34,446 nucleotides of DNA. It comes from Aduncisulcus paluster. Its lineage: Eukaryota. Where the stretch lies: NCBI GenBank assembly GCA_024181965.1, contig BQXS01012435.1, positions 1-34,446 of the forward strand, given 5' to 3'. Every line of letters starts with the position of its first letter. Position 1 is the stretch's first letter. The notes under the pieces are model-generated. The model was not told the origin of the DNA and made no database searches. It saw nothing but the letters and a program-made list of their open reading frames with translations. Position numbers and translations under genes: made by a program. This document shows positions 4,319 to 32,785 of the stretch, piece by piece.

Positions 4319-4956
4319 AAATAACAAAAAATCATCTTTCTATGTTATTTGCAGCTTGGTTGAGATAAGCACAGGTTAACTGAAGTACTGGCTCAGAAAT
4401 CTCTTCCATCGGCAACATACACCAAAACAGCAAAGTAAAGTCACGTTTGTCCGAGAACCTTGCATACATCTTCTTGTGTTCAATCAATGAAAGTATAAGG
4501 ACACAAATCAACGCCAATACAATTCCTAAGATACAATAGAACACCATGGAGGCCATGTTTGAGTCTAAGATCTGTTCGGCCTCATCAACTACCATCATAA
4601 TCCCGGCTTCAGTATCAAATGGCAGAGNNNNNNNNNNNNNNNNNNNNAAATAACAAAAAATCATCTTTCTATGTTATTTGCAGCTTGGTTGAGATAAGCA
4701 CAGGTTAACTGAAGTACTGGCTCAGAAATCTCTTCCATCGGCAACATACACCAAAACAGCAAAGTAAAGTCACGTTTGTCCGAGAACCTTGCATACATCT
4801 TCTTGTGTTCAATCAATGAAAGTATAAGGACACAAATCAACGCCAATACAATTCCTAAGATACAATAGAACACCATGGAGGCCATGTTTGAGTCTAAGAT
4901 CTGTTCGGCCTCATCAACTACCATCATAATCCCGGCTTCAGTATCAAATGGCAGAG
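4319..4956. repeat. Tandem 309-bp duplication around 20-N gap (4319..4627 = 4648..4956); probable assembly overlap
   Basis: The same sequence lies on both sides of N run 4628-4647. It produces the spurious ORF 4332..4664. Confidence 0.9.
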
Positions 4957-11110: not shown

Positions 11111-12868
11111 TCACACGGAGACTTTCTCAGTGTCTTCAAAATACACAGCCATGCTATCAACAGCACACAAACCACGTTGAACATTGATGAATCCATTGTC
11201 TCCAATACCTTCACCCCATGAGTTTCTGATGATCCAGTAATCAAGATCCGTGTCATCATCATGACCGTAACCGACCAAAAGAACAGCATGATCAGTCTCA
11301 ACGAAGTTGTCAGGACCGTTATCACCTCTTTCAAGACGGGCATATTTGGATGCAGAACCATCATAAATACCAGATTCAACAACTTGGAGAGCACAACCAG
11401 AGTTAGGATCTCTGTTAACCATAACACCAATAGCAAGAGGACCGTGTTGGTCAAGGTAATCGGTCATAAGATCCTCGGTACAAGCACCGAAGGCACCACC
11501 AATGTAACCGTAGGTTCCAGCAAAGTATCTATCGTAGTCATCACCTTGGAATCTATCCAAATCACAAGTATCAAGGGTAACATTGTCGTCAGCATCCATA
11601 GGGTAAGGCCATTTGTCTTCCCTGACCCATCCGAAATCACGGCCATAACGACCCATCAGATAGCTGAATCCACCATCACAACCCTGACCGAGAGGACTGC
11701 ACTCGAGCATGGGAGTAGGAGCCATTCTGAATTCATCCTCAACAGTACGGTTGTCGAGGTCATAGACACATTCAGTTCCATCCTGGGATTCTTCATGTTC
11801 AATACAATACATGGCCTTCATGAGACCAGCAGAGGCGAATGAGTAGCAAGAACCACACTGACCTTGGTCACGAGCAGGTCCAACATAATTTTTGTTATCC
11901 TTATTCCTCCAGTCAATTCCTTTTCCCTCCCAAGAGGATTTGACAGAACTGGTACCTTCGAATCCAACAGAGTTTCCAAAGACATTACGAGGAGAACCAC
12001 TGTTCTTACGGAAGGTAACATTAGGCTCGTGCTCATGCAATTTGTAATTCAAATTTAGGGAGTTGATGTATTTAGCATAGTCCTCATAGTTTGTGAAGAC
12101 TGGGATATCGTCAGAGTTCTCAGGGGCTTCAGAAACAGGTTCCTCGGTGTTATCTTGAAGACAACCATCAGTGGGTCTGGGGGCAACAAGAGTACCAGTG
12201 TAGCACAAGGTGTCAGGATTGGTGAAACTACCAACGCTGTTAAGGTCAAGGTTCTTGGCCCAACCAGACATAGTTCCAGCACAGAAGGAGAAATATTTAT
12301 AAGTAACGGCAATATCGCTGGGGTCTATCACATTTCCATCTTTATCATACATTACTTCAGTGGAAGCTGGACGAGCGTAGGCTGAGAATCCGTAAACACT
12401 GAAGTTTCCTGTGGTTGAGGTTTCAGCATCATCAAATGTAAGAGTAAGGGAGAGGTTCATCTCAAATCCTTGGTTGTAGACACCAGTCCATGTCCCAATT
12501 ATCTCATCTCCTTTGCTCCAATCATTTCCACCATTGTTAATAGCTTCATAAACGTTATACTCGTAATCAAGCCACACACGAACAACAGTTTGAGTGGGGT
12601 GATACTTCCATTTCCTGGTCATGGTTTGCATATGTGTGAAATCAGTACCTTCAATAAATCCATCATCTCCATGGTCAACAGGGAAAAAATCATGGCAAAG
12701 GCCATAAACTGAACTGTCGTCAGATCCAGTGTGAGTGAGATAACCGTCGCTACTGAATCTTAACTCCCAGACACCCAAAAACTTGCAAGAAGTACATTGG
12801 GCTTGTGTATCAGCACTAATAAAAACAATGAGAGCAAGTATCAGTGTTAAAAAAAGTTTTAAGTGCAT
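11111..12868 (-). CDS. CTSC: Cathepsin C / dipeptidyl peptidase I (papain family C1A), 585 aa
   Basis: Signal peptide then DTQAQC..FLGVW (exclusion-domain start) and GTWTGVYNQGFE. Catalytic motifs DQGQCGSCYSF, QGCDGGF, TDHAVLLVGYG and WIIRNSWG. Confidence 0.9.
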   Translation of the reverse strand: MHLKLFLTLILALIVFISADTQAQCTSCKFLGVWELRFSSDGYLTHTGSDDSSVYGLCHDFFPVDHGDDGFIEGTDFTHMQTMTRKWKYHPTQTVVRVWLDYEYNVYEAINNGGNDWSKGDEIIGTWTGVYNQGFEMNLSLTLTFDDAETSTTGNFSVYGFSAYARPASTEVMYDKDGNVIDPSDIAVTYKYFSFCAGTMSGWAKNLDLNSVGSFTNPDTLCYTGTLVAPRPTDGCLQDNTEEPVSEAPENSDDIPVFTNYEDYAKYINSLNLNYKLHEHEPNVTFRKNSGSPRNVFGNSVGFEGTSSVKSSWEGKGIDWRNKDNKNYVGPARDQGQCGSCYSFASAGLMKAMYCIEHEESQDGTECVYDLDNRTVEDEFRMAPTPMLECSPLGQGCDGGFSYLMGRYGRDFGWVREDKWPYPMDADDNVTLDTCDLDRFQGDDYDRYFAGTYGYIGGAFGACTEDLMTDYLDQHGPLAIGVMVNRDPNSGCALQVVESGIYDGSASKYARLERGDNGPDNFVETDHAVLLVGYGHDDDTDLDYWIIRNSWGEGIGDNGFINVQRGLCAVDSMAVYFEDTEKVSV

Positions 12869-13235: not shown

Positions 13236-15878
13236 CTATTTGCCTTCAGATTTCCATTCATTCATCAATCTTGAAAGCTTTATATCACGAGGAGTGCCCA
13301 TTCCACCAGGAAGGTCTAAAATAGGAACCCCTGGCGCAGCTTGGCGAGGACTCCGAGGAGATCCAACCCCGTCAGGGTTAGAAGGATCAAGAAGGTCATT
13401 CATAACCCTTTCCATGCTTCTCTTGGCCTTTGTGACATCACGAAGTTCAATTCTCATTGTATCACTCACCATTACTTGCCTCTTAAGGGCCGTCTTGGTG
13501 GTCCTAAGTGATCCGAGTGCAAAGAAGAGGAGCAAAATCATAATGAGAGCCAGGATACCCAGAATTCCAGGGTGGAATGCAATGGACAATACCCGACTTA
13601 ACGAAGCTCCAGGCAACGTGACAGACTCGGAATAATGCATAATCACTCCGACCATACTTCCATAATCCTGTTGAGCACCACAGATAGTCACCTCTTTCTG
13701 CATCACCCAGAACAGGACAAGAAGCATAGATACAAACACTATGGCACAGGCTCCCACAAGGAATCTGTTGAGACTCTCAACACCCCAAGGCTTGTCTTCA
13801 CGCCGGCAAAAGAAAAGGGCTTCCCACTTCCGAACGTAGAATACGATAAAATTAGTCACACATGCCATCACAACAACTCCTGGGGAAGCAACCATCCCGA
13901 GGAACATGATGCACTGCCTGTAGAGCATATCCACAGCAATGACCTCCACTTTGAGTGGATATGGCTTGAAACAAGCAAACAACGAAAGGAATCCTGGTAC
14001 AATCAGAGATAAGGAGAGCTGCATGATGAGATCTATCCACATGAGAAGCCATAGGTCCTGTCCAGCTGAGGTATATGGACAGATGTCTCCAGTAAAAAGA
14101 TCCATCATCGAGATGCACATGGTTCCTAGGATAATAGCTTTCACAAGGGTCACCCGGACAACGGTATGCACAAGCCTGGTGGAAGCATACTTCCAGGGCT
14201 CAACAGAACGAATAATGGCCCTCACAAGAAGTGGAGATATGGTGTTCATTCCAGAAACGATCATTGGGATATACCATAAACCTGTTCCATCCTCAGAATC
14301 AGCCTCAAAGCGCTTCAAAAATACAAGCGCCAAAACAAAGCCGAAACAGATTCCCGAGGTAAGGGCAAGTCCAATGAAAGCACGGAAGAAATACTGAAAC
14401 ATTGGTCCGATCGATCCTTTCTTGGCATTCATCTCAGCCAATTCCTTCTTGAGAATCTTTCTCTTCTTTACGAGCTCTGATATCTTTGTCGTAAAAGCGA
14501 TGTGGCTATCCTGAACACCCAATGGGTCTTGTTTGGAATGGTCCCAGAACGAGAATAGTGCGCTTGAGAATGCCGTATGTTTTCCAAGACCTTGGGCACT
14601 GTTCTTATTGCCCTTGGGCTTGTACAAGGCTCGTAGAGTTAAGATGGTGAAGAAAAAAAACAAGATCAGACAGACACAGAAGGTTAAGGTGTATCCTAGA
14701 TCCATATGATACACGTTACTATTGTAGAGATCATAAGAATACTCATATTCGGGAAGAAGGGGTGCATAAAATAAGGCGGAATCCTCAAACACACCACTAC
14801 CTTTGAAAAAATGAAAGAAATTGCGTGAAAATATATTGATTAACACGCTATTATGCTCCCCTGATAGAATCGCAGGAATAGACACGAATGCAACAAAAAG
14901 AATGGTGATTAAAAGGTTTAATTCAAATAACCACCGAATAAATTCAAATAAGGCCCCTTCTCCGGCTCCGAAACGACCACGGATCTTTCTAATACTATCT
15001 CTCCAAAGAGGATTAACATCACTCGTCCTTCCACTTTGTTCCTTCATTCGTTTCACGGAGTCCCATTTATCCTTGAGAGTTTCAGAATTGGTACAACACG
15101 TGGGCTTGCAACATAGGTCTTGTTCATCAGAATCGGCATTCATTTTTTGAAGCAACAGTCCTGGATGGAACCCAGCAATGAGTTTCTGCATGTAAGATCC
15201 ATATTTCCTCCTGTCTGAAGATGAAAAGGGAAGAACTTTACCCTGAAATATCCTAATCTCAGCAGCAGTCATATATTCTCTCTCTGATAGAGAATTGGTG
15301 GTGATTCTTTGCAATTCTTCAAGATGACCAAGGATTTTTTTGTTTAAAACAAGGGCATTGTCATCTGGAACCTCACGGGAGATATCACGTTCGCTATCAA
15401 CACTAAGAACAGTGGGACGCATGTTACGGGGAGATGCTATAAAACCTTCCTTGTTTGCAGCAGCCATTTCTTCAAGGGCCTCCTTTTCAGCCTTCTGCTG
15501 AGCTCGTAGTACCGTGGGATTAATTTGGATATCATCTGATGGATCGGCTACCGATTCTTCTTTAATCGCTCCACCATCTTCTTTCTCAGGTTGGAGCCTG
15601 GAAGATTCAGGAACAGAACCAACAGATAAATGAGAGGATACTGGTGGAGGTTCTATTTCATCCTTGACTGCTTCTTCTTTAACGACAACACCAAAGGCTT
15701 GAATATCCTTACTGATAGCTTCCCGATGGGAGTCTTGTCCCCCAATTACATACCCATTTGTATCATAAACATTATCATCACTTTGAACATCGACGGGTAT
15801 GGATGAGGGTTTTGGAGGTTGGGATGATATAATCTGTCGAACAGGTATAGATAAAAATTGTGGAGTTACTTGTTTCAT
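13236..15878 (-). CDS. Transmembrane channel-like (TMC) family protein, 880 aa
   Basis: LWRDSIRKIRGRFGAGEGALFEFIRWLFELN matches the TMC pre-TM1/TM1 motif. Also FKGSGVFEDSALFY, CPYTSAGQDLWLLMWID (cf. CWETxxGQE) and LYRQCIMFLGMVASP...FYVRKW...C. About ten hydrophobic helices. Confidence 0.85.
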   Translation of the reverse strand: MKQVTPQFLSIPVRQIISSQPPKPSSIPVDVQSDDNVYDTNGYVIGGQDSHREAISKDIQAFGVVVKEEAVKDEIEPPPVSSHLSVGSVPESSRLQPEKEDGGAIKEESVADPSDDIQINPTVLRAQQKAEKEALEEMAAANKEGFIASPRNMRPTVLSVDSERDISREVPDDNALVLNKKILGHLEELQRITTNSLSEREYMTAAEIRIFQGKVLPFSSSDRRKYGSYMQKLIAGFHPGLLLQKMNADSDEQDLCCKPTCCTNSETLKDKWDSVKRMKEQSGRTSDVNPLWRDSIRKIRGRFGAGEGALFEFIRWLFELNLLITILFVAFVSIPAILSGEHNSVLINIFSRNFFHFFKGSGVFEDSALFYAPLLPEYEYSYDLYNSNVYHMDLGYTLTFCVCLILFFFFTILTLRALYKPKGNKNSAQGLGKHTAFSSALFSFWDHSKQDPLGVQDSHIAFTTKISELVKKRKILKKELAEMNAKKGSIGPMFQYFFRAFIGLALTSGICFGFVLALVFLKRFEADSEDGTGLWYIPMIVSGMNTISPLLVRAIIRSVEPWKYASTRLVHTVVRVTLVKAIILGTMCISMMDLFTGDICPYTSAGQDLWLLMWIDLIMQLSLSLIVPGFLSLFACFKPYPLKVEVIAVDMLYRQCIMFLGMVASPGVVVMACVTNFIVFYVRKWEALFFCRREDKPWGVESLNRFLVGACAIVFVSMLLVLFWVMQKEVTICGAQQDYGSMVGVIMHYSESVTLPGASLSRVLSIAFHPGILGILALIMILLLFFALGSLRTTKTALKRQVMVSDTMRIELRDVTKAKRSMERVMNDLLDPSNPDGVGSPRSPRQAAPGVPILDLPGGMGTPRDIKLSRLMNEWKSEGK

Positions 15879-16297: not shown

Positions 16298-19200
16298 ATG
16301 GCTGATCTCAACACGTCTGAGATAATGATGTTGTTATGTCTAAATAGCGAAAATGGAAAGTTAGAACCTTTTATTTCACGAAAAAATGCAAGATCTATGT
16401 TTTTTGCTGCTATTATTTTTTCGCTACTCCAAGGTAATCAAAATTTATATATTAATCCCTCTTCTGGTGAATTGCAGGTGCTAACAACTGAGAATCTTGA
16501 GGTTGATTTGGGTCGGCTTTCTTTTGGCCGTACAGAAACACGTGGAGATGTCAATACTGAGATTTTGAAGGCCTTTTCTCATGTTGTCCCTTATCATGAT
16601 CATTCTTTGCCCTCTAGTGAAATGGATACATGCTCAAGTGTGGATGGAGTTACAATATTTAAAGGAAAACAACATGTTGCCACTGATAAAAGTGGTGAAT
16701 CCACAATCGGTGTAGATTCCATCCATTCATCTGATAAAGAGATATCCATGGGAGAACTACCTTCGTCGTATAGAGAAGAGCTCTCAGATGTTTTAATGGC
16801 AAGGAAATCTCCTGTAATGCGCCTTTCTCATGTATTTTCAAAAAAGCAACAGCGTCAGCAGGAAAAATTTTATATTCCTCCCGAAGCTCAAGAAATATTA
16901 AAACCAGAACAACGTGATCGAACATCTCTCCAATTTCCTAAATCATCTGGCGATGAACTTCATCGCAAAAGTACCGAATATCACCCCATATATAAAACCC
17001 TACCAAACCCGTCTTCCCCATATTCAACTGCTCTCCACAATACAGATCATAAAAAACCATATGATGATGTTGCTCTCACCCCATCTTTGTGTCTATCACT
17101 TTCATACAACGCCTTTTTAAATCTTATGCGGTCCACCCACATTCCACATCATCTTTCTTTCTGGCTTGATCCTGGTGTCTACGATATTTTATACAAACAA
17201 ACATTTCTTCAACGTGGTAAGGCTATGAGTTATCAGCGATTTAAACCATTGCCATGGACTCACAAAATTGTAAGGAAATATGTTCGTGAAAATCAGTTTA
17301 AACATAAAGCCCTAACGATGGTCATTAAACAAATTCAAACTAACCCAGACAAAGACTTCGTTGTAGATCCTCATATGCATGACCAAAGTGATGTTCCTAC
17401 CCACGGTTCAACTGCTCTTGACGATGATACCTCCGGGAGGAAGCTCTCACAACACCCTATTTTACAAGATAGAGCATCGTCTCCGCAATATGACACTGGG
17501 ACTGGGTTTGCAACGACAAAGAATCCACATCTAATTGAGGAGGATGCTCTGGGACTTTCATGCTCAGTTCCCCAATCTATTATCTCTGAATATTCCACTT
17601 CTGACACACTGGATGGTGCCAAAGATAGGTCCATGGAAGAAAGCACTGGAGACACAGGTGTACATCGTGTCCAAGGAATATTCCAGCCTCACACAGCCTC
17701 CCCATTATTCGATACAATGAAGATACCATCTGATGGGACATCTGATTCATTCGAGTCTGGCCCTGACCACCTTGAGCATGACCACGGGATATGCAAGAGC
17801 TATGATGTGGCCGTGGATGATGGAGAGGCCGAGGATGAGTTCTTTAGTGATGATATGGGGTATGTGCTGTGTCGTGCAGATACGGAGATCGCTGGAGAAC
17901 TCGACATATCGTCTGATAACGAGAAGGGGTATGAATCGTTAAGAGAGAGATTATCACAGAAATTGAAGATGAAACCACTCAAATCTGACATTCCTGACAG
18001 TCGCAGAGATATTATGATGGAGAGTACTATTGGTCGTGATAAAATAGACATTTGTGAAGAGGAGACTAGACATGTTGACGGGGGTTGGACTGATGATTCT
18101 GAAGGACGAATAGATAGGGTTTCGCTACCAAGAATACATGAAGGAAAGCGTGAAGAGGATATTATTCCTTCTCATATTGAAGGAAAAGTGGAACTATTTG
18201 CAAGGACTCCCTTTGAAAAGGAGCATAATGTAGGAGATACTGATATATATTCTTCCCAACCCAACCCTATTCGATGTGTAATTTCGTCTGATTCAAAGGA
18301 GGAGGAAGAGGATGAAGTGCGATCCTCAGAGAAGGTCATAGAAGAGGAGGAAGAGAGTGGGAATGTCGATAGTGGAGCTGATACAGACGATATATATGAT
18401 ACAAACGAGACCTATGGACCTTTTAGGAGGNNNNNNNNNNNNNNNNNNNNCTCATATTTAAGGAAAAGTGGAACTATTTGCAAGGACTCCCTTTGAAAAG
18501 GAGCATAATGTAGGAGATACTGATATATATTCTTCCCAACCCAACCCTATTCGATGTGTAATTTCGTCTGATTCAAAGGAGGAGGAAGAGGATGAAGTGC
18601 GATCCTCAGAGAAGGTCATAGAAGAGGAGGAAGAGAGTGGGAATGTCGATAGTGGAGCTGATACAGACGATATATATGATACAAACGAGACCTATGGACC
18701 TTTTAGGAGGTTCTTTTGTGCGTTAGGTGTTTTTCTTCTCTCTTTGCTTGAGTTTATTGCCTTTGACCTTGTTTCTTGCTTCTCCTGCTCATCCTCTGAA
18801 GATGAGGAGAGTGATGGGAATCCTATCTCAAATGAAGCAAGAGTGAGATGCTTCAGACAAAAACAGGCCTTCCAACGTTTGATTGAGAGTACACAAAGGT
18901 CTGACTATGCTTCATTTCCGGGTAGTTCTCTGGAGCAAGATGTGAGGACTCAGATCCTTGGGAATATGTATGCATATGCTGATGTGTACAAATACAATAC
19001 CATTGAGGATGATCTTGCTGTTCCCGAGAGTTCTGTGGCCATTGGTATTCCTGATGTTGCCGCTGATCATGTCCTTCTTGGAGACGTATGCCAGGCTGAT
19101 GTGACTGGTGGGGTCATTCATGAAAGAGAGAGGAGGAAGGAAGAAGAGGATGAGAAGGATGAGGATACTGAAAAGAAAGCGTTGGAACAAGCACAAGAGA

Positions 19201-20057: not shown

Positions 20058-20525
20058 AAACATTTTTCCATCACAAATTGTAATAATATATTGATCGGAG
20101 TTTGTAACGGGGAAGTTCGAGTGATTTCTACTTGATACATACTCTTTTTTTCAACCTCTTCATTCCAATTTGGAATTCTTTTTTTATTGAATTTGATGAC
20201 GATTTTTGCGAATCGATTGGTTATTATTTTCAATTTTTATCGGTTTTTTGTTATTTTTCTTACATATAAGATAAATTTCGAGGGAATTTTTCAAGTTGTT
20301 TTCTTTGATTAGTATCAAACTGATATAAATAAGACTCGGCTGGTTGGCATCGTTTTAATTATTATATATTATTATTCTTATTATTTGGCTTTCTTATTGT
20401 AGATAATTTGAGATAGGAGTAGATTTTGATTCATTGGATTTTTCAACAGTCATTTTTGATTCTATAATAAACCCTGACTAGCAATACAATGAGATGGAGA
20501 ACAGGGGTTGGGTTTCAGGGATCTC

Positions 20526-20544
20526 ACAAATTCAACCCTCAACC
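20526..20544 (+). repeat. 19-bp direct repeat, left copy (ACAAATTCAACCCTCAACC)
   Basis: Exact match to 23152..23170. Lies 45 bp beyond the kinase stop codon. Confidence 0.9.
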
Positions 20545-20589
20545 AAAATACAAGATTCGTCTCATTCATACAACACAATTTATAGAAGA

Positions 20590-23064
20590 TCATGTGGATC
20601 CAGAATGTTTTCGATTTTGTTCTTTGATAATACCATCAATAGACGGGTATTCAAACCCTTCCCCAATCTCTGGCAGTAAAGATTTGATAGTTTGCACTTT
20701 TTTGCGAGCATCATGAACACTCATACGTGCATCTTCATCTCGCTGAATGAGACCTGTGAAAACCTCATTGAAAACCTCATTAACAGTTTTGTATTTCCCA
20801 TCTTCAATGGTCAACAAGGATTTGAACAAAGGAACTCAACAAAGCCGTGGACACAAATCACATTCTATCAAACGAATAAGGACTTTTATGACATCAATAT
20901 CATCTGCTCTTCCCAAGTTAACTTTTCTATTAACTTCTCTGACAAGAGGCAATGAAACAAAAGGTTGCTCACATAAGAATAATGAAAGGATCGACATTCC
21001 AAGAGAATACGCATCACTCTTTTGGGTTTGAGTCCCATTCAAAAGGGTTTCATAAGAGTTATACACAAGAGTTCCACATCTGGATTTATCATGTTTTGGA
21101 TTCTTTTCTTTCTTCTCACCCCGAATTGGTTCAGCGGCTGACTTGGAAGATGCTGAAGAAGAGATGGAATCCAAGATTCGGACCATTCCAAGATCAGAGA
21201 GAACAACAGTGCATTCGCCATCCTTGGGACCAATACGAACAAGAAAGTTGTCAGGTTTCACATCTCGATGCACAAGGCTGCGTTCCGCTCTAAACACATC
21301 ATCAACACTCACATACTTGCCAGCTGCACACCAACTCTTTGCAAACGAACTCACACTACCTCCAACACAAAATTCCATCAAGAAACCATACACACCATGG
21401 AAATCTGCATCAAGAAGGTCAAGGATATACAAGGGACGTGGGATATGGTTGAAACATTTGGGATTCGTGAATAACTTGAGTTGCACCTTAAACTCCTTCC
21501 GACACCCTTTCACAACCTTTTTGTCTGCAACTCGAAGGATCTTCTTCAGAACACATGGGAAAGGAAGACCATTAACTTTCACAAGAAGAACCTCTCCGAA
21601 TGTACCCCTGCCAATGATGCACTGAGGAGTGATGGTGGATGCAGAAGTCAAGGTTAATGAGTCGTGCTTTGGCAAGATTTTATCATCTTTAGGACCTGAA
21701 TCTTGATCGACTGAGGATTTTTCAGGAAGAAAACTCGAAGCAAGCGAAGAATCTAGCAAGTGGTGCTTGGGCTTACCATCCTTGGGGTTATGTTTCTTTT
21801 TATCCTGAGGTTTCTTCTGTTTGGTGTCTTTTGGTGCTGAACCCTTACCATTTCCAATTATGACAACTTCTTGTCTTTCTTCAGCATCATCTTCTTCTTC
21901 TTTCAGGGCAGCTCTCACAGGTTTTGATGGCAAAGGCAAAGTTGATGTGGGTGTCCTGGAGTAACTGGAAGGAACAGGAGTAAGAAGAGGAGAAGAGTTG
22001 GGATTATCATCACCTCGAATGAAAACAAGGGATTGGATACGGAAATATCGGCAATAATGATTATTTAGAATTCCTTTCCCTTCAATCTCACACAATACAA
22101 TATTATTTAAATCAATAGGAAGGAAGTACCATTGGTATCTATATTTAGGTTTTGGGAATTCATACTTCTTGAATATTTTTTTCCTATCACAATCAGTGAA
22201 AGTAAAGAGAAGAGATGGGGAACTATCATCTTTATCCACACAGATATAAGCAGCTTTTAATGGACTTGGCGATGGGAAAGGGATGGAAAGGTGGGATAAA
22301 CGGACATCATCTTCCCCTTTTAACATTCTTTGGGCTCTTGAACTTTGATCATAATACAAAGATTCCTTTCTCTTTGAATCATCTTTGCATTTAACCATTG
22401 AGAATAAAGGATCAACAAGATGTGGATCATCACGTGGAATGGGAATAGATTTTCTACCATGTGATTCTTTATCTCCTTTCTTAACAAACTCTGGTTTCAC
22501 AACTGGAGCTTCAGACCATAGTTTCTTTTTGACTTCTTGAGCTAGGAGTTCCTCAGGGCTTTTTTCTCGAAAGAAAACAAGGGATTTGATGCCAAAGCAA
22601 TCTCTACTTCTTCCTTTCCCTGAAATCTCACACAAAACAACATCAGAGAGATCAACAGGAAGTAAATACTAATGGGCTTCCTTAAATTCAGGAAATTCGT
22701 ATTTTTTAGATGCTTTCTCCTTCTTTGAAGATGTGAACCTGAAGATAAGATGTGATGGAAGCATGGTCCAAGAATAATTTGAAAGACAAACATAAGCAGC
22801 TTTCATTGGGAAAGATGAGGAGAAAGGAATAGAGATATTAGTAAAGTGTCCATAATTAAGCTCTCCTTTAATCGTCTTTTCTGCACTATAACTCTGATCG
22901 AATCCTTTATCACCTTCTTCCTTGCTTCCATCTATTGCTTTGATATCTTGAAATTCGGCACTCATAATATTGGGGGCGTCTCCAGGAAGTGGACAACAAT
23001 CCTCCCATCCCTCATGAACAAACTCTGGTTCCACAGTTTGAAAAACATCTGAGAATGAACTCAT
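20590..23064 (-). pseudogene. Divergent Ser/Thr protein kinase with two tandem N-terminal domains; pseudogene
   Basis: ORFs 22669..23094, 20836..22635 and 20590..20829 share one frame, split by TAG (22669-22671) and TGA (20836-20838). Kinase motifs IGRGTFGEV, VLKK, HRDVKPDN, SDLG, GTLVYNSYE and SDAYSLG. The segment between the hinge and HRD is too short (helix E apparently missing). Confidence 0.8.
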
Positions 23065-23151
23065 TTGACAAGAATTTAACATAAAATAAAACAAACAGAA
23101 TTGTGATAAACAATAATGCGAATGTCAAGAAGAACGGTCCTCAGAAAAAAG

Positions 23152-23170
23152 ACAAATTCAACCCTCAACC
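23152..23170 (+). repeat. 19-bp direct repeat, right copy (ACAAATTCAACCCTCAACC)
   Basis: Exact match to 20526..20544. Lies 87 bp upstream of the kinase ATG at 23064. Confidence 0.9.
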
Positions 23171-23425
23171 GGCCCTACCGGTATTTGAAGGCAACTCGTT
23201 AAACCACGAATTAATTTATAAAATCCAAATTAAATTGTCAAAATAAACATAAGCCTTGAGATATATAATGTTATTTTTCATCAATGTATGTGAACTGCAA
23301 GATTTTTGCCAATAGAATCTATTTTGAAAAAATATTATTTTTCTCGCTATTAACAAGCTACATTATGTATTGGGTATTTTATTTTATTATAAATTCGGTT
23401 TTACTATGATTATATAAATACAATG

Positions 23426-24089
23426 CTAGTGAAAAATTATTTTTGCGAGTTGTTGGATAATAGGCTTCTCCACCAATCCTGGTCCGCTCACGACAGTTTG
23501 GCAAGTACTCTTTTCCATTCCAGGCCTTTTCATACTGGCAAAGATTTCACTAAATGGGATTATTTGTTCCAAAGCACGGTCCCATGCAGATTTTTTCTTG
23601 TCTTGAATCTTTTTGGTCCTGGGTGCGAATGGAACTCGTTCACATTTCCGTCTCGTGACAACTTCATTGAGCTTAATGGCCTGGGTTCTCAATCTCTCTC
23701 GCATGGTTGCCTCAGCCTCGGTCAATTCCTTCTCAAGCTCGAGATTACGATTTCTCACACGTGTAACTTCCTGGTTGTCGCTGAAGAACCTCCATGGGCA
23801 GCACAGGCTTCTCAATTTTCTTTCCTTCCAAATATTCAGCCCAATCGGGCAAAAAAAGGGATTGCTTTAGTCTATGACTGTTTGTATTTTTTTAAAAGCA
23901 TGAACATTTTCCTTTGACGCATGGAATTCCTGCAATGAAACAAGGGCAAGTCATCTTTCCTGCGCAATTATTAGCTCCACAACATTTACATTGGCCAGGA
24001 TAACCTGAAATCTTGCACACTTTGACTAAATTATCATGTTGACGAAACAGCTTTTCCCGTTCAATTGCTATGAATTTCCATGCAGCCAT
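23426..24089 (-). pseudogene. Degenerate ORF with CXC-like Cys cluster followed by a coiled coil
   Basis: QCKCCGANNCAGKMTCPCFIAGIPCVKGKCSC, then an in-frame TAA (23892), protein-like continuation (DWAEYLEGKKIEKP), and a frame change into RNRNLELEKELTEAEATMRERLR. Confidence 0.4.
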
Positions 24090-24582
24090 TCTCGTACCAC
24101 GATGGACATGGTGAAAGGATGTGGTTACTGAGATACGTATTTATTTGACAGCAAAACTCTGCACCTGTGCGAAAAGAAATAAACAATAAATTCCTTTAGA
24201 AAATAATTTCTTACATAAAAGTCGGCAAAACCGAGACGGAGATCGAAACGAAAAAGTGTTTTGGAAATGTTGACAAGTAATTCAGAATGATTACGAGAAA
24301 TGACATTTCTTATTTGTCAATCCTCAAAAGTTGTTCAAAACGACTTGGAAATCTATTTTTTTCGTATTTCGCTTCGATTAACAAGTTTTTATGCATATAT
24401 TTGAGTTGCAAAGTCATTTTAGAACAAAAATAAAACAGCGTGTTCTAAAAATAGATTTTCTAAAAATAGAAATGGGCATTTGTAAATGGGTTTAACACAC
24501 TCTATTTCTTATTATTTGATAAATGAAAAGATATTTCTGCATCAATACAACCAATTCCACCTCTTGTTGAAAAGTAAAGTTG

Positions 24583-27500
24583 TTATTTTGCCAATTTTGA
24601 GAGTCGTTCTCGCTCCCTCGCATTTCTTATCTCCTCCCGAAGTGTAATTTCATATTGTTCCTTGACTTCTGGTTTCACAAATATGGATAGAGAACGTGCT
24701 AATTTCACGCGTTCAGAAAGGGAAAATGAGAGTGATTTTCGTGTATTCTTTGGCAAAAACACACGAGACATTGACTTACAAAGCTTTACCAACGTTCCTT
24801 TTTCCATCTTTTGTCCCTTCATTCCTTTCAAAGCAGTCTTAAATATTGCATATTCATCATCCGAGAGAGTTTGTTTGACATCTTTGATATATTTCAATTT
24901 CCCTTCCTTTGATGATGAATAACTCAGAGAAGAAATCGCTGATGAACTGCTGCTCTGAGATTTCTCAATTTGTTTCTCTTGAATCTTTTTATGCTGCGAG
25001 AACAATTCCTCCATTCCAACGATATTATCCATGATTGTTTTTTGCTTCTTCTTCCTCCGTTTCTTCTCTCCGAGCACCTTTACACCGAATATTCCACTTT
25101 TCACCGAGGGAGAGTCAGAAATGACATGTTGTTTCACGCCAAAGAATTTACACATCCTGTCTATCCACTCGGCTTCCCCATTCTCTGATATTTCCAACCC
25201 TCTCTTCACCCATCCACTGAGTCCTTTCATGTGATTATCTTGTGCATACCGTTCGTCGCAGAGCACCACCAATCCATAATCATCTTTATGCCGGCATACT
25301 CGACCGATAGCCTGATTCGAGGATCGAAGAGCTTCGAGAGTGTACCATTCAGAGTCAGTGAGGGGAGGAGGGGGAAGAGAATAAATTCCTTGGCATATCT
25401 CGAGGATAAAAAAGGCTGATTCAATCGACACATCTGTGAAGGCCGAGTATGTTGAGGTATACAAGGCTGTTGCATCACGATGAGCACTGAGAGCTGAGTC
25501 CATTTCTGATTTTATATTGTTACACATGGCATAACCTTGTCTCATGCGTTGACCCCCTTTTATAAGAGACAAGGCCTGAGAAAGTTGTTTTTTATAATGA
25601 GGAGGATGAACTTGATGAGATTTTATCTTCTGCTCGAGAGTTTTCACCTTATCTCCCCAATGTCTTCTCATACGTTTGTAGTACTCTTTCTGCATCTGGA
25701 CACCCCTATCATTAACAGGGGGGTAGGGGAGACCAGTAAGGATTACACATCGACTCATGTCATCTTTGCTATCGAAGCCTTCACTGATCTTACCACGACA
25801 CACGGCAAATAAGGCTCCACCACGACTCTTTCGGGCAGAGCTGGAGGTTCTTCTCTTGACGCCAACTGAAACACTATCCAGGGCTGCCTTATATTCGTCG
25901 ATGACGTCTTGGAGTTCTTCAGCTTTCCGGGGTTCGATGACAAGATGTTTTAAAGAATGTAATGAATCCCAATATCCTTTGCGTTTGAACACATCAATGG
26001 TATCACGCATCGCAGCAAAAGAGGGGAAAAAAACAAGCACCCCACCTTTGACATAAGCAAAACAAGCAAACAATAAGGAAGCAAGATTATCAATATACGT
26101 ATCAGTGAGTCTATTTTTAAACCGACTATTTAAAGAAGTGGGTGAGAAATCAGTAGTCGTTGTGAAAGCAGAATATGATGAAGATGAAGAAGAAGAAGAT
26201 GAAGATGATGATGAAGTCAAGGGAGCAAATGAATTCTCCATGCTGTGGCGAAAATCGAAGGCTGAACCCTTTCCAACGCTCTCTGGTATTACCATTCCAC
26301 CCCTTGTTCTTCCTTCACCTTGAACTTTTACAAGAGCTTCTTGCATCTTCAATTTGTCCCCTTGATCCCTCGCTGATACATATTCCCACCAAGCCCTACG
26401 AAGACCCTTGGTTACACCCTTTGTCACAACACACGGAACTTGGGAAGAAGCAACAACATGTTCGTTGGCAAGTTGGATAGGAAATGGTAGGGAATATTCC
26501 TTTTCATAGGGCGATAGGGGAGACAAGGTTCCACTGGTGAGAATTAAGGACCAACACCTCGCTCGAGCACACAACTTCCTAACGGCATATGAAGGAGAGA
26601 AACAACGGAATTCAAATTCTATGTCATAAATTCCATGAGGACGGAGTGCAGGGGGCAAGGAAGGTGCAAGAGAAACTGCAGCTTTTGACACAGCTTCTTG
26701 GCGATGGGGAGGAGCATGTTGGACGAACAAGGGTTGGGCTGCTCCTGAAAACAAATCACAAGAACCATCAGATTTCACTCTAAAAATAGAATTGAGAAAT
26801 TCATGGATTATTGATAAAGCAGGATCATAACTTACTCCCATAAAGAATGGATGGGAACAGCATTGAGCAATAGTCCTTATTTGAGCACTAACCGAGGTTT
26901 TGTAATCTTTGACTTTCATAGTTGCAACCATTTTCTCACCTTCCTCACCTTGAGTCCATCCTTCTGCTTTGATACCACAAAGCAACCCAATATGTCGAAT
27001 GAGTTCAGATGACTCAATGGCAACAAAAGGGGCCGTTTCAGATGGGGTTATTGATTTTGAAGGAGGAAATGGCTTGAATACATTTCCATCTTCCAATATC
27101 GGACTTCCGAGTACTTGAGGTTTTCCTGGAGATGTTGCAAAGCTATAAAGTGAAGAGGAGGAGGAGATACCAATTTTCTTTGACGAAGAATGGCTAGTTT
27201 TCTTCTTTCTTTCTGTCCACCTCTTGGCATCAGGAGGAATGGTGCTTGTGTTGATTCCGATCCCATAACGAATGATCAACGAATGTAACTTTCTGAGGAT
27301 TCTTACAAGAGTTTTCATTTGAACATCGTCGAATAACTTGTTTTCTTCACTATATGGAAGAGTTGGTGTGGATAACATAAGAATATTGCCTCTGACAACA
27401 TATTTGCTCTTTCGAAGCTGATCAATCTCTTCCTTGGACAAGATAGAGACAATTTTCTCCGATGAAGTTGATTTAGAGTCTCCTTTATCGCTTGAAGTTC

Positions 27501-28653
27501 CCATAGGAACAGGAGCAATGTTGTAGACAACTGTGATACCTATTCCTTGCATCTTTTTAAGCATTCTATGGACTTCATTCTTGGCCTGGGTGATCTTAGT
27601 TCCGGTCAAAGATCGTGTTTCTTCGGCTGAACTGGCCCCATGAAGGTTGTGAGCCTCATCAAAAATTATGACGCTCCCAGGTCGATCGAAGAGCCCAGTT
27701 ACTCCACGCATGGATGATGATAAAGCATAGGAATATGGCATGAGGACAACACCACGGCCTCTCTCTGCAACATCCTTTGATGAATGGCGGCAAAGAAAAT
27801 ACGGACATACGAGATTACGTTCCCCATATGAAGTAGCATCTTCAATATCGAACGCATGAGTCTCCATTTTATCGCGCATCCTCATCAATTGGTTATCAAA
27901 GAAGTCAGAAAGACGATCATTTCCCATTCCTCCTCTCTTTCCACCGACACCTCTCTTGAACTTTCCTCCACGAGAACCAGATACAATTTGATCGACTGCT
28001 TCACTCACAGAAATACCACCACTTGGTCCATCACCGGTGTAAGGATAATATTTGCATCGTCCTTCTGCTCGTAGAGAAGCACACATCACCCGAGCAATAT
28101 TGGGAGACTTCGAGTTTACATCAGGATTCAAACATAAATGTTTGCGACTTGCAAGAAGACCAAATGGAACAGATGATAATTGCTTTAACTCTTTTGAGAC
28201 CTGAGTCAACTGAGAATGAGTTCGAGAAGTATAGATAATAACAGGTGAAGGACGCGAATCTTCCGTTAATTTCAATACAGAAGCCTCTAAAACGGCAGAT
28301 CCACTGACTTTTCCGACAGAACGGACCATTTTTTGCTGTTCTTGCTGAAATCTTACATGATATTGAGCAGCGACTGCTGAACTGGCACAACGATCTCCAA
28401 TAATGGCATTATCATTATTAGCAACCTCTTTCTGCCATGATAAAGATGCAGACAATAAGCAGATGGTCTTTCCAGTCCCGGTTGGACTCTCCAATAACGC
28501 ATTACTTCCAGAAACTAATGCAGTCATTAATCTCTCCATATATTTCCTTTGTTGAGGATAAGGCTTGTAAGGAAATTCAATATTCACTCCATGTTCAGTA
28601 ATATCCATCCCCTCATTGACGAAAAAGTGATTGCAGATATTGGAGAATATCAT
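24583..28653 (-). CDS. RTEL1: RTEL1-like Fe-S cluster DNA helicase (XPD/FANCJ/RTEL1 family); start may instead be the ATG at 28608
   Basis: FPYKPYPQQ (Q motif), ESPTGTGKT, YTSRTHSQL, four Fe-S Cys (RKHLC, MC, RCKYY, CPYF), DEAHN, TSGTLSP, VFFPSF, AVCRGKISEG and NQAIGRVCRHKDDYG. The C-terminal YIKDVKQTLSDDEYAIFKTAL resembles the RTEL1 harmonin-N-like domain. Confidence 0.85.
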   Translation of the reverse strand: MIFSNICNHFFVNEGMDITEHGVNIEFPYKPYPQQRKYMERLMTALVSGSNALLESPTGTGKTICLLSASLSWQKEVANNDNAIIGDRCASSAVAAQYHVRFQQEQQKMVRSVGKVSGSAVLEASVLKLTEDSRPSPVIIYTSRTHSQLTQVSKELKQLSSVPFGLLASRKHLCLNPDVNSKSPNIARVMCASLRAEGRCKYYPYTGDGPSGGISVSEAVDQIVSGSRGGKFKRGVGGKRGGMGNDRLSDFFDNQLMRMRDKMETHAFDIEDATSYGERNLVCPYFLCRHSSKDVAERGRGVVLMPYSYALSSSMRGVTGLFDRPGSVIIFDEAHNLHGASSAEETRSLTGTKITQAKNEVHRMLKKMQGIGITVVYNIAPVPMGTSSDKGDSKSTSSEKIVSILSKEEIDQLRKSKYVVRGNILMLSTPTLPYSEENKLFDDVQMKTLVRILRKLHSLIIRYGIGINTSTIPPDAKRWTERKKKTSHSSSKKIGISSSSSLYSFATSPGKPQVLGSPILEDGNVFKPFPPSKSITPSETAPFVAIESSELIRHIGLLCGIKAEGWTQGEEGEKMVATMKVKDYKTSVSAQIRTIAQCCSHPFFMGVSYDPALSIIHEFLNSIFRVKSDGSCDLFSGAAQPLFVQHAPPHRQEAVSKAAVSLAPSLPPALRPHGIYDIEFEFRCFSPSYAVRKLCARARCWSLILTSGTLSPLSPYEKEYSLPFPIQLANEHVVASSQVPCVVTKGVTKGLRRAWWEYVSARDQGDKLKMQEALVKVQGEGRTRGGMVIPESVGKGSAFDFRHSMENSFAPLTSSSSSSSSSSSSSYSAFTTTTDFSPTSLNSRFKNRLTDTYIDNLASLLFACFAYVKGGVLVFFPSFAAMRDTIDVFKRKGYWDSLHSLKHLVIEPRKAEELQDVIDEYKAALDSVSVGVKRRTSSSARKSRGGALFAVCRGKISEGFDSKDDMSRCVILTGLPYPPVNDRGVQMQKEYYKRMRRHWGDKVKTLEQKIKSHQVHPPHYKKQLSQALSLIKGGQRMRQGYAMCNNIKSEMDSALSAHRDATALYTSTYSAFTDVSIESAFFILEICQGIYSLPPPPLTDSEWYTLEALRSSNQAIGRVCRHKDDYGLVVLCDERYAQDNHMKGLSGWVKRGLEISENGEAEWIDRMCKFFGVKQHVISDSPSVKSGIFGVKVLGEKKRRKKKQKTIMDNIVGMEELFSQHKKIQEKQIEKSQSSSSSAISSLSYSSSKEGKLKYIKDVKQTLSDDEYAIFKTALKGMKGQKMEKGTLVKLCKSMSRVFLPKNTRKSLSFSLSERVKLARSLSIFVKPEVKEQYEITLREEIRNARERERLSKLAK

Positions 28654-28703: not shown

Positions 28704-29755
28704 TTATTCCGTTTTAAGCATTTTCGCTTCATTAAACCAGTTTACGATAATTTTCTTGCAAAACTTACAAACACCTTCTTCATAAAGAGTACCATCCTCA
28801 TAGAAAGCATCTTTGAGTAAATATAAACCGTAACTCACAACATTTCCCTCTTGTGTCTGTGAATCGAAAAAGGGTTTTTTCCAAGAGGGTTTTGTGAAGT
28901 GTTTTTCCACTTTCTTCTTATCATCATGACGTTTCTTTTGTTTGAATTCTTCATCATCAGCTAAATATAATATTTGATCCGTTGAAACTCCTTCATCGAC
29001 ACATAACAATTTTAGAACCATCTCCTTGTCATCAAAGAAAAAGAAAAGGGAAGGTCTTTTTGACTCAGCAAGAAGCTTTGATGGCATAAATTTTTTGCTA
29101 AAAATCGTAAAATCAATCTCCTCTTTTTTATCTTTCTGAACTTTGGGAGATGATGATGAGGAAGATTCTTTGGGGGGTTTTTGGCCTTGAGATCCCTTTT
29201 TGATATCTCTAACTCCAATTATTTTCCCAATTTTTCCAANNNNNNNNNNNNNNNNNNNNCCTTGTCATCAAAGAAAAAGAAAAGGGAAGGTCTTTTTGAC
29301 TCAGCAAGAAGCTTTGATGGCATAAATTTTTTGCTAAAAATCGTAAAATCAATCTCCTCTTTTTTATCTTTCTGAACTTTGGGAGATGATGATGAGGAAG
29401 ATTCTTTGGGGGGTTTTTGGCCTTGAGATCCCTTTTTGATATCTCTAACTCCAATTATTTTCCCAATTTTTCCAATTTTAAGATCTTTTGATTGGATTCT
29501 ACTAAAAACAAAATAAAGCCCAAAAAATAAAATACTGATGATTGAAAGGACAAATCTATACTTTGTATGGTTTCCTGGAGTTCTTAATATCCACCAAGAT
29601 AATCCAGTTAATCCTAGACAAACTACACCAATGACAATTTGAATATACATGGTTCCGGAACTCAAAGAAAATCTATTCTCCAAAACCTGGATGAAACATT
29701 CATTTAAAACTCGAAAAATGGTGTTTCTATCTGATAAATTCACTTTTGTTGGCAT
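28704..29755 (-). CDS. Probable signal peptidase complex subunit 2 (SPC25/SPCS2-like), 271 aa after collapsing the gap duplication
   Basis: MPTKVNLSDRNTIFRVLNE..., two adjacent TM helices, and C-terminal FYEDGTLYEE resemble SPC25. ORFs 29219..29845 and 28704..29087 fuse in frame when the duplicate is removed. Confidence 0.55.
29024..29475. repeat. Tandem 216-bp duplication around 20-N gap (29024..29239 = 29260..29475); probable assembly overlap
   Basis: The same sequence flanks N run 29240-29259. Confidence 0.9.
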
Positions 29756-29935: not shown

Positions 29936-32785
29936 ATGAATGCAAAGGTTAAACGAGGCCTTCGTAAATTACGAATTAAAAAGAAAAAAGTGGTTAAATC
30001 CAAGCGCCATGTATGTTCTTGATTGTTTGTTCTTTCTTCTGATTCCGTTCGTATTTTGTATTTGTAAATTCTCGTTAACATTATTAATATACTTTTAGTC
30101 AAGTGTTTTACGTACTCCACACCCATTTGCCTATTTTGAAGCTCAATTACAAGAAACAGGTTGGAAAAAAAGAACTTCTGACCTAAGAAATGCATTAGAT
30201 TTATTTTTAGTTCCGAAACTTGTTTCTAAAACTCCCAAAAAGTCAGTTACCGAACAAAAATCTTTCCCTCTTGGATTGGTTGCTTCAGCTAAACGAGCTG
30301 TTGATGATTTCATAGAATCTTCGAGGGTAGATACTGGATATGATTTGTCTCCTACCAAAAAGGGAGATTCATTCCCCCCTGAGGACTCCAATCCCTCTCA
30401 ACAGGAACCTGGATCATCTTCTCATTCTCCTTCATCCCATTCGTCAACAGCCGGGAGTCCTCTTGCATTTTCTCTTCCTCCAACCGGAATAGAGGAAGNN
30501 NNNNNNNNNNNNNNNNNNTTTTAGTTCCGAAACTTGTTTCTAAAACTCCCAAAAAGTCAGTTACCGAACAAAAATCTTTCCCTCTTGGATTGGTTGCTTC
30601 AGCTAAACGAGCTGTTGATGATTTCATAGAATCTTCGAGGGTAGATACTGGATATGATTTGTCTCCTACCAAAAAGGGAGATTCATTCCCCCCTGAGGAC
30701 TCCAATCCCTCTCAACAGGAACCTGGATCATCTTCTCATTCTCCTTCATCCCATTCGTCAACAGCCGGGAGTCCTCTTGCATTTTCTCTTCCTCCAACCG
30801 GAATAGAGGAAGTTGAAACCCCCATGCGTTCTCCCTCACTCCACGCTACCCCTACATCTATCACGAGACAATACCTACCTTCCGACGATCAACGTGATCG
30901 TAGGACCAGCCCTCCCTCTCAAGGCATTAGAAATATTCACCTTACTCCAAAGAAATCTGCAGTCTCCATCCCATCCTCCCTGTTCTCAAAGAGTCCAGCC
31001 CCTTCCCTTGAAATGGATCTAGCCTCTTCGATCACCCATGTTATCGGAGGAGTGGAGCACGGGAGTTCAATCCCTTCATTTCAGCACCATAAGCATATGA
31101 CACAGCCATTATCATCAGCGGATACTCAAGATATACACCTCGATAACACCGCTGAGCCTGATAGGACTCCCACTGAGCCCTCCCTAACTTCAAGTCTATT
31201 TGGCGGTACTCTTTCATCGCTGGGCAGTGGAGATAGTGGAGATTCAAAGAAAGGATTGACATCTGCTCTCTCCAATCTTGGCTCTCTATTTGGAGGCTCC
31301 GAGAAGACCTCCAGTGACTCCAAGGATACGACGACACCCACCAAGAGTGACGAGCTTTATGCTAATGTTCTCTTTGGCTCATCGATGGCTAATTCACAGG
31401 TTCCAGGGAGTGGGACGAGTGAAACGAAGGATAAGGATTCTTCAGGAACTCCAAAGACATCCTCTGAAAAAGATGATAAAGATTCTTCAAAGGATTCCAA
31501 AAAGGTCACATTCAGTGAGCCTATATCCGAGAGTCTGAAAGATGTAGCAAAGAAAACCGACACTTCCTCTTCTTCCTCTTCTTCTTCCTCTTCATCATCT
31601 CTCTTTGGAGATGTCTCTGCTGGTGATAGCAAAGCCAAAGATACCTCTGATAAAGAAAAAGAGGGCGATGGACTGTTAATGTTTGGATCTCCTTTAAGGA
31701 AAGATGCTAAGACTGCCTCTGGTGACGATGATAAGAGCTCTAAAGGCTCCAATATGACAGAAAGTCTCTTTGGGGCAACTGCCAGTGGGGATAGTGGCGG
31801 TTCTTTAGGAGGGAGCTTATTTGGGAGTGGAGGAAATTCAGATCATAAGGAAAAGGAAAAAGGAAAAGACACATCTAAATCTACTGATTTGGGTAGTTTG
31901 TTTGGTGGAGGTTCTTCCTCTTCCTCCTCCTCCTCTTCTTCTTCGGCATCTACAGGTAATCTCGATGTCAAATCTTTGTTTGGGGGAAATACTTCTGAAG
32001 AAACAAAATCATCCCATGACAGGAAATCTTCTTCTGATTCTTTGTTTGGTGGAGGTTCTTCCTCTTCCTCCTCTTCCTCTTTTTCTTCTTCAGGTCACGA
32101 TGGATCCTTGTTCGGTAGTGGAGCGTCCACAAATAATAATAATGATGTCGATATTTTTGGTGTTGGCTCATCCGGTAAGAATAGTGGTGATATCTTTGGT
32201 GCTGGGTCTTCCTCTTCCTCTTCCTCTTCCTCTTCCTCTTCCTCTTCCTCTTCCTCCTCTGGCGGTGGAGGTGTTGATATATTCGGAGTTGGATCATCTG
32301 GAGACACTGGTATGTTTGGGTCTGGAGGATCAGGATCTGATGGTATCTTTGGGTCTTCCTCCTCTTCCTCCTCTTCCTCCTCTTCCTCCTCTGGCGGGTC
32401 TCTCTTTGGAGATGGAGGAAATAGCTCCGAATCGAGGGGAGGTATGTTCCCTTCTGATCTCGATAAGGAGGCTGGCTCATCGAAACGGAGCACAGGCGGT
32501 GGGTTGTTTGATTCTGCGTCCTCCTCTTCCTCAAGTTCAAGTGGTGGTTCTTCCTTGTTCGGCGATAATAATGCAGGCTCTGGTTCCGGGGGTGGTTTGT
32601 TTGGGGGTGCTTCTGGGAGTGGCTCAAGTGATATCTTTGGTGGAGGTGGTTCTTCGTCAGCTTCTTCCTCCTCTGGCTCAGGAGGTGGATTGTTTGGTTC
32701 AGGGGGTGGTCAAGCTGGGAGTCACAACTCTGGAGGAACCTCTTCTAACAACCGAAAGTTTCGTAGACTGAAAAGGGGTAAATAA
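29936..32785 (+). CDS. FG-repeat nucleoporin, Nup1/Nup153-like, ~815 aa, join(29936..30010, 30099..32785 minus gap duplicate)
   Basis: Exon 1 MNAKVKRGLRKLRIKKKKVVKSKRH is spliced to SSVLRTPHPF.... There are many SLFG/GLFG/DIFG repeats in Ser/Gly spacers and a basic C-terminus RKFRRLKRGK*. Confidence 0.75.
30011..30098 (+). other. Spliceosomal intron (88 nt, phase 0) in nucleoporin gene
   Basis: CAT|GTATGT donor, GTTAAC branch-like motif at 30074-30079, and TTTTAG acceptor. Joins the ATG at 29936 in frame to the long ORF. Confidence 0.8.
30205..30812. repeat. Tandem 294-bp duplication around 20-N gap (30205..30498 = 30519..30812); probable assembly overlap
   Basis: The same sequence flanks N run 30499-30518. 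Confidence 0.9.

Follow-up and report, generated by a model that had tools for sequence, protein, structure and literature searches.

What placed a single protein-kinase gene copy between two exact 19-bp direct repeats in the genome of the free-living Giardia relative Aduncisulcus paluster? The copy lies in the 34,446-nt stretch of DNA analysed here (contig BQXS01012435.1, forward strand; hereafter the window), and the initial annotation proposed it as a candidate mobile gene cassette that arrived as a discrete unit. The feature is real and the cassette headline is wrong. Our best reading is a one-off insertion of a now-broken paralogue into an intergenic spacer, with a likely 19-bp target duplication, and a eukaryotic gene-cassette system is not supported.

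The same exact 19-mer occupies positions 20526-20544 (left copy, putative target-site duplication, on the 3' side of the gene) and 23152-23170 (right copy, on the 5' side), both given on the plus strand, in agreement with the initial annotation. It has no further match in the window at up to three mismatches, and two matches were seen in 0/100 shuffles. The pair is the only non-simple exact repeat of at least 17 nt in the window, at a spacing of 200-6000 bp and away from N gaps; an exact repeat of 19 nt was reached in none of 100 Markov simulations of the window, the largest being 18. There is no N gap between 18450 and 29240, and separately assembled contigs of run X1 span both junctions (20105-20627 and 22634-23511) with 0 differences, as a contig of run X2 does for the left junction. 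These contigs rule out mis-assembly; as the assembly may itself derive from X1, the check tests the assembly and adds no second sample. The view that the repeat is no scaffolding duplication artefact was thus upheld, with no gap at the unit and the junctions spanned by run contigs. Elsewhere in the window, five exact duplications of 216-309 bp flank 20-N gaps (4319-4947, 8066-8607, 18171-18710, 29024-29475 and 30205-30812) and are scaffolding artefacts.

The unit between the repeats has no mobility function of its own. Its Pfam matches are kinase families only, with the N-terminal piece matching nothing, in line with the initial annotation, which saw no transposase or reverse transcriptase inside; no Rfam match or tRNA was found in the unit and the family spacers. 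The initial annotation had described a single intact kinase reading frame, and this did not hold. The frame (20590-23064, minus strand) encodes two ~180-aa repeat domains (the N-terminal half consists of two repeats ~540 bp apart), a linker and a protein kinase, and it is disrupted at several places. A premature TAG (22671-22669) lies at the end of the first repeat domain and is present in X1 and X2 contigs with 0 differences. A premature TGA (20838-20836) replaces, in the kinase C-lobe, an Arg of the closest paralogue; the only run contigs that cover it carry the paralogue's letter, so this stop is unconfirmed. The Pfam Pkinase match (20956-21618, minus strand, E 3.5e-12) keeps the HRD and DLG motifs and lacks the segment before the catalytic loop. 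Compared with the closest kinase relative, C11063, the copy is without 147 bp (49 codons), deleted in frame between TTGATGA words with the junction at 21299-21308, and it has two further deletions near the C-terminus. The stretch is 120-189 bp longer in every gap-free relative listed across it. By kinase anatomy we take the 147-bp segment to hold helix alphaE, and its loss suggests that the kinase of the bracketed copy is probably dead. A disabled frame is a trait of processed pseudogenes.

Two explanations that would keep the frame open were rejected. An altered genetic code does not fit stops that are one TAG and one TGA, with open frames in the paralogues. The public gene model P0001 (765 aa) bypasses both stops by two predicted introns (~123 and 72 bp), which remove sequence that is kept as coding in the relatives; no joint for these introns was found among the run-contig joints listed (15 of 27), and we treat them as a gene-finder workaround.

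The kinase belongs to a large family, with at least 266 matches in its own genome (142 of 457 candidates scored); the protein matches listed, 120 of 221, are all labelled Aduncisulcus paluster. The copy is a mosaic of paralogues, closest to C12606 over 21761-21400 and to C11063 over 21266-20598 (82-89 of 90 nt), and for its 5' half none of the loci compared is a close relative, the best being 75-86% identical per 200 nt. Upstream, the relatives have several hundred non-coding bases in common, and they often stand in tandem. None of 37 relative loci has a GT-AG insertion relative to the copy; the relatives are intronless, and intron loss therefore cannot be seen in the copy. The sequence 3' of the stop differs in nearly every family member (35 distinct tails), and two clear pairs share tails; a third case is a short partial match only. 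In one gene model, P0012 on C12386, a family kinase follows an integrase/chromodomain fragment (PF22938, PF00385) to which it is fused, and this suggests an LTR element beside a family 5' end. An unrelated gene on C11063 has, directly after its stop, a 203-bp orphan copy of the kinase 3' end (L067:2310-2512, 99.5%); what is probably the source lies ~600 bp downstream of the orphan, whose ends show no evident duplication. We found nothing relevant on this family or this copy in a search of mainly open-access literature, and the accessible text of the Aduncisulcus genome announcement (PMC9933649) holds no discussion of the kinase family.

The ends of the unit are informative. As annotated, 45 bp separate the repeat from the TGA (20592-20590) and 87 bp separate it from the ATG (23064). 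On the 5' side, the non-coding sequence shared with the family (23065-23156, minus strand) is shortened, with many paralogues sharing several hundred bases more. Family similarity begins 92 bp ahead of the ATG and overlaps the right repeat copy by 5 nt (23152-23156), TTTGT on the coding strand, so that the first shared family letters are the last five of the repeat. On the 3' side, a 35-bp tail that is unique in the assembly (20545-20579, minus strand) runs from a remnant native stop of the C11063 type (TAA, 20582-20580) to the repeat. The tail has a T-rich end, and the reported absence of poly(A) at the gene 3' end was reproduced. The unit thus ends 87-92 bp ahead of the ATG and 35 bp beyond the remnant native stop.

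Outside the repeats, the left flank (20486-20525, unique in the assembly) has 50% GC against 17-33% further out, and the right flank (23171-23210) has 50% against 12-28% over the next 240 bp, a level reached by only 3/189 sliding 40-nt bins of local non-coding DNA. Two GC-rich outer bins are as expected if one patch of ~100 bp was split by an insertion. From the private 19-mer, the right copy at the similarity boundary and the split GC-rich patch we infer that the repeat is probably a target-site duplication. These three lines agree with the part of the initial annotation that proposed discrete arrival with a long target-site duplication. In the genome search that it had suggested, the 19-mer occurs only at these two places at up to two mismatches and is thus locus-specific, the outcome that it had linked to target-site duplications. 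No empty site was found in the assembly. The site does not form a marked hairpin (best z -1.75; modelled empty site, z -0.84). Short GGTT-type repeats are abundant at 20500-20544 of the window and at the 5' boundary region of locus L065 (oriented 1768-1801), a weak hint of site preference that is not above chance.

The other part of the initial annotation, in which a tyrosine recombinase put a circular gene cassette into a 19-bp site common to the family, which was spread in this way, is largely refuted, and we regard it as very improbable. It could draw on a gene-sized unit between exact repeats and on 19 matches to Phage_integrase (PF00589) in the assembly, a few of them in long open frames; none of the 19 is on this contig. 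The recombinase matches in open frames of 348-930 aa are on C11504, C12441, C11726 and C12185, with an RVT_1 match on C11726 too, and DIRS-like or virus-like elements may be present in the genome. Against the cassette, the 19-mer is private, the cargo is broken, and no joint skipping the unit, such as excision would leave, was found among the run-contig joints listed (15 of 27; contigs drop rare forms). At three mismatches the genome holds nine further places for the 19-mer, against four for the reversed control. Three of the nine (on C43, C9976 and C12655) were inspected, and those on C9976 and C12655 share a 14-16-nt core and are both inside unrelated open frames. The prediction that paralogues would be flanked by repeats failed: with boundary-aware flanks (42 of 67 units, 25 being dropped near a locus edge and some sharing a contig), a repeat longer than 12 nt was found in 0/41 other units, and their repeat lengths match those of 1722 cross-pairs of unrelated flanks. 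With fixed 1.5-kb flanks (32 units), an exact repeat of at least 13 nt was found in 0/31 other kinase units, and at stop-adjacent boundaries the repeats were like the null in 6/6 usable units (of 9).

Several further candidates for the origin of the repeat were rejected. A 10-nt repeat resembling the 19-mer at the 5' boundary of L065 is of a length seen in 135/1722 null pairs, and the 3' copy of this repeat falls within sequence common to another locus. The resemblance of the 19-mer to the family upstream region, which would make it what is left of a motif there, is not significant (equalled by 24/500 shuffles on the mean and 48/500 on the maximum). A cut-and-paste DNA transposon does not fit unit ends that show no inverted arms among the longest 25 of 78 pairs, which bears out the annotated absence of terminal inverted repeats, nor an interior with kinase Pfam matches only. 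An LTR retroelement would have long terminal repeats with TG...CA ends that recur at other loci; the repeat here is 19 nt, does not end in TG...CA on either strand and is unique to the locus, and an LTR remnant was rejected as well.

We tentatively favour, at somewhat less than even confidence, a single RNA-templated insertion: the unit would be a tailless retrocopy of a family transcript that later decayed. The activity would come in trans from a reverse transcriptase, with an R2-like non-LTR protein as the likeliest source; alternatively, cDNA made by an LTR element could have been captured at a break. Copying of the transcript into a staggered cut would begin inside the short 3' end, the new cDNA would anneal by the five shared bases to the other target end, and filling of the stagger would duplicate 19 bp. 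The stops, the microhomology deletions and the patchwork exchange with paralogues would arise with the insertion or after it. Both ends of the unit are where a short-UTR transcript would end, which argues for an RNA template, since a DNA copy could carry several hundred shared upstream bases. The private 19-mer, the GC-rich bins outside both copies and the 5-nt overlap at the 5' end also argue for a retrocopy. In the accessible part of PMC2912911, retrocopies with microhomology at the 5' junction are described, and the target-site duplications of L1 peak at 14-16 bp; in that of PMC5322556, tailless mammalian retropseudogenes made by L1 have flanking direct repeats of 8-35 nt and a TT/WAAAAWW target. 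Other observations argue against it: the absence of poly(A) and of visible intron loss speaks against passage through RNA, the lack of a near-identical parent for the 5' half and of such a repeat in the 41 other units speaks against a retrocopy, and gene fragments nearby that were copied without evident duplication point to DNA repair. The site is not TT/AAAA, the L1-type target. RNA-templated arrival of the copy is plausible but unproven.

A close rival of the retrocopy, which we consider possible with about one chance in three, is the capture of a DNA copy while a break was being repaired. By the 5-nt match, one end of the break would invade a paralogue, copy 2.6 kb and rejoin the home strand 19 bp behind its point of departure. 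Alternative end joining or microhomology-mediated template switching would in this way duplicate 19 bp with no RNA step. The paralogue mosaic, the internal deletions between short matching words, the absence of poly(A) and a neighbouring spacer that is a patchwork of fragments from other loci all fit this route. According to the accessible text of PMC8516963, metamonads lack NHEJ and lean on homologous recombination (Aduncisulcus is not named there) and alternative end joining is complete in Carpediemonas membranifera, and according to that of PMC4516963, breaks can take up genomic DNA as well as cDNA. What this route explains poorly is the position of both breakpoints just beyond the coding frame, at ~90 bp or less from it, since copying of DNA at random would seldom stop there. 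Microhomology at the 3' end is unsupported too, since the match of the tail plus repeat to 35 family 3' flanks was equalled or beaten by 62/300 shuffles.

That same comparison bears on a head-to-tail junction, in which, read on the coding strand, the first 14 nt of the repeat would be family 3' flank and the last 5 nt the family 5' start, left by a circle or tandem piece of more than unit length. The family does occur in tandem arrays, and one of the nine three-mismatch places, that on C43, lies ~80 bp behind a family kinase stop in the same orientation. This C43 match, though, belongs to another subfamily, where it sits in a short simple tandem, the alignment is not significant (62/300 shuffles, and 295/300 for the 35-nt tail alone), the upstream look-alike is weak (24/500 mean, 48/500 maximum) and the GC-rich patch across both outer flanks fits an origin in the target; we consider such a junction unlikely. 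Coincidence, with the two 19-mers unrelated to the arrival of the gene, is even harder to accept and has only a slim chance. Cross-pairs of unrelated flanks came near this length, with maxima of 18 nt in 1/992 and 17 nt in 1/1722, but 19 nt was reached in 0/100 simulations and in no cross-pair, and the right copy stands exactly at the end of family similarity.

The retrocopy reading needs a source of reverse transcription, and the genome offers candidates. RVT_1 has at least 150 matches (150/436 candidates scored). C11425 carries, at L186:2-3004, an R2-like non-LTR element whose open frame of 1000 codons has RT, CCHC, RH and PD-(D/E)xK-type motifs. Its protein has R2 proteins as best PDB matches (E 1.2e-28) and 86 related matches in the genome. 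The element has a short AT-rich 3' end without poly(A), and it is convergent with a neighbouring gene that is presumably SET-domain-like. The L1-type endonuclease PF14529 gave 0 matches in the assembly, which is incomplete. At two partial R2-like loci no clear end duplication was found, the longest exact repeats off gaps being 11 and 13 nt, and a third locus gave no match; this and the missing L1-type endonuclease count against the retrocopy. The unit and the R2-like protein tested shared no sequence. It seems unlikely to us that the copy is the single well-kept trace of a general route by which R2-like (RLE) elements, acting in trans, spread the hypervariable repeat-kinase family of this fornicate to new loci by way of tailless retrocopies. 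On this reading, most copies would have 5' ends that vary, a 3' end close to the stop codon and a target duplication that is small or absent. In 23/34 kinase 3' ends with a partner, similarity stops at a median of 18 bp beyond the stop (maximum 110), a hint that is confounded by the 3'-end partners being more diverged than the 5' set. The 5' similarity ends of the family vary over hundreds of bases; the 5'-end half of the comparison took in internal domain starts and duplicate loci and is unusable as a count. If true, this would be the expansion of a host-gene family by RLE-type machinery in a lineage in which no L1-type endonuclease was found.

The unit is set among ordinary host genes, as judged by Pfam: a DEAD_2/Helicase_C_2 helicase (24583-28653, minus strand), a TMC-domain protein (13236-15878, minus strand) and a cathepsin C-like protease (11111-12868, minus strand). 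The genes flanking the unit are convergent, as the initial annotation had it. The spacer to the right of the unit (23481-24474) is a patchwork of fragments from other loci. Within it, 23625-23772 resembles, at 79%, a long coiled-coil frame on C10917 in its 3' end; C10821 holds a copy of 23511-23793 at 92-93% that has an internal deletion; 23804-24111 matches C13843 and C12721 at 66-70%; and short dispersed repeats, each present in many copies, make up 24138-24209 and 24415-24474. A 36-bp stretch of the right flank (23481-23514) is found again (92%) on C9692 (L079:3637-3672), a few bases ahead of where another family gene has its 5' boundary, with the relative orientation reversed.

The unit is a single and probably dead copy of a gene whose insertion left a clean footprint, and as such a small data point on how several hundred kinase genes were scattered. 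Retrocopy formation has mostly been described for L1-type elements, and R2-like elements acting on host mRNA would for this reason matter. Long reads showing many such copies would, if this is true, raise the importance of the locus.

Among known systems, integron cassettes and Crypton or DIRS elements also place one gene between short direct repeats; the unit differs from them by having no shared site, no site array, no recombinase on the contig and a broken cargo. With the tailless retropseudogenes, as described in the accessible part of PMC5322556, it has in common a single gene copy without poly(A) and a direct repeat within 8-35 nt. It differs in a target that is not TT/WAAAAWW, in the lack of an L1-type endonuclease match and in its protist host; with neither the target consensus nor the L1 machinery found, it is not of the strict L1-made tailless class. 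Processed pseudogenes, by the available text of PMC2912911, are likewise gene-sized units with target-site duplications near 14-16 bp, 5' microhomology and decay, but the unit has no poly(A) and is not of the classical class. The R2-like RLE elements, whose RT, CCHC, RH and PD motifs are set out for R2Bm and R2Tg in the accessible part of PMC4838377, are present in the genome and are candidate machinery, the unit itself encoding none of these motifs; in that candidate role they would have to act on host mRNA and leave 19-bp duplications. Break capture, as far as the available text of PMC4516963 describes it, likewise gives one-off insertions that lack poly(A) and are joined through short homology; it was seen at CRISPR breaks in the mouse, and a 19-bp duplication would need a staggered break or a backward template switch. 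Taken together, the unit behaves as a tailless retrocopy would, or a gene copy captured at a break.
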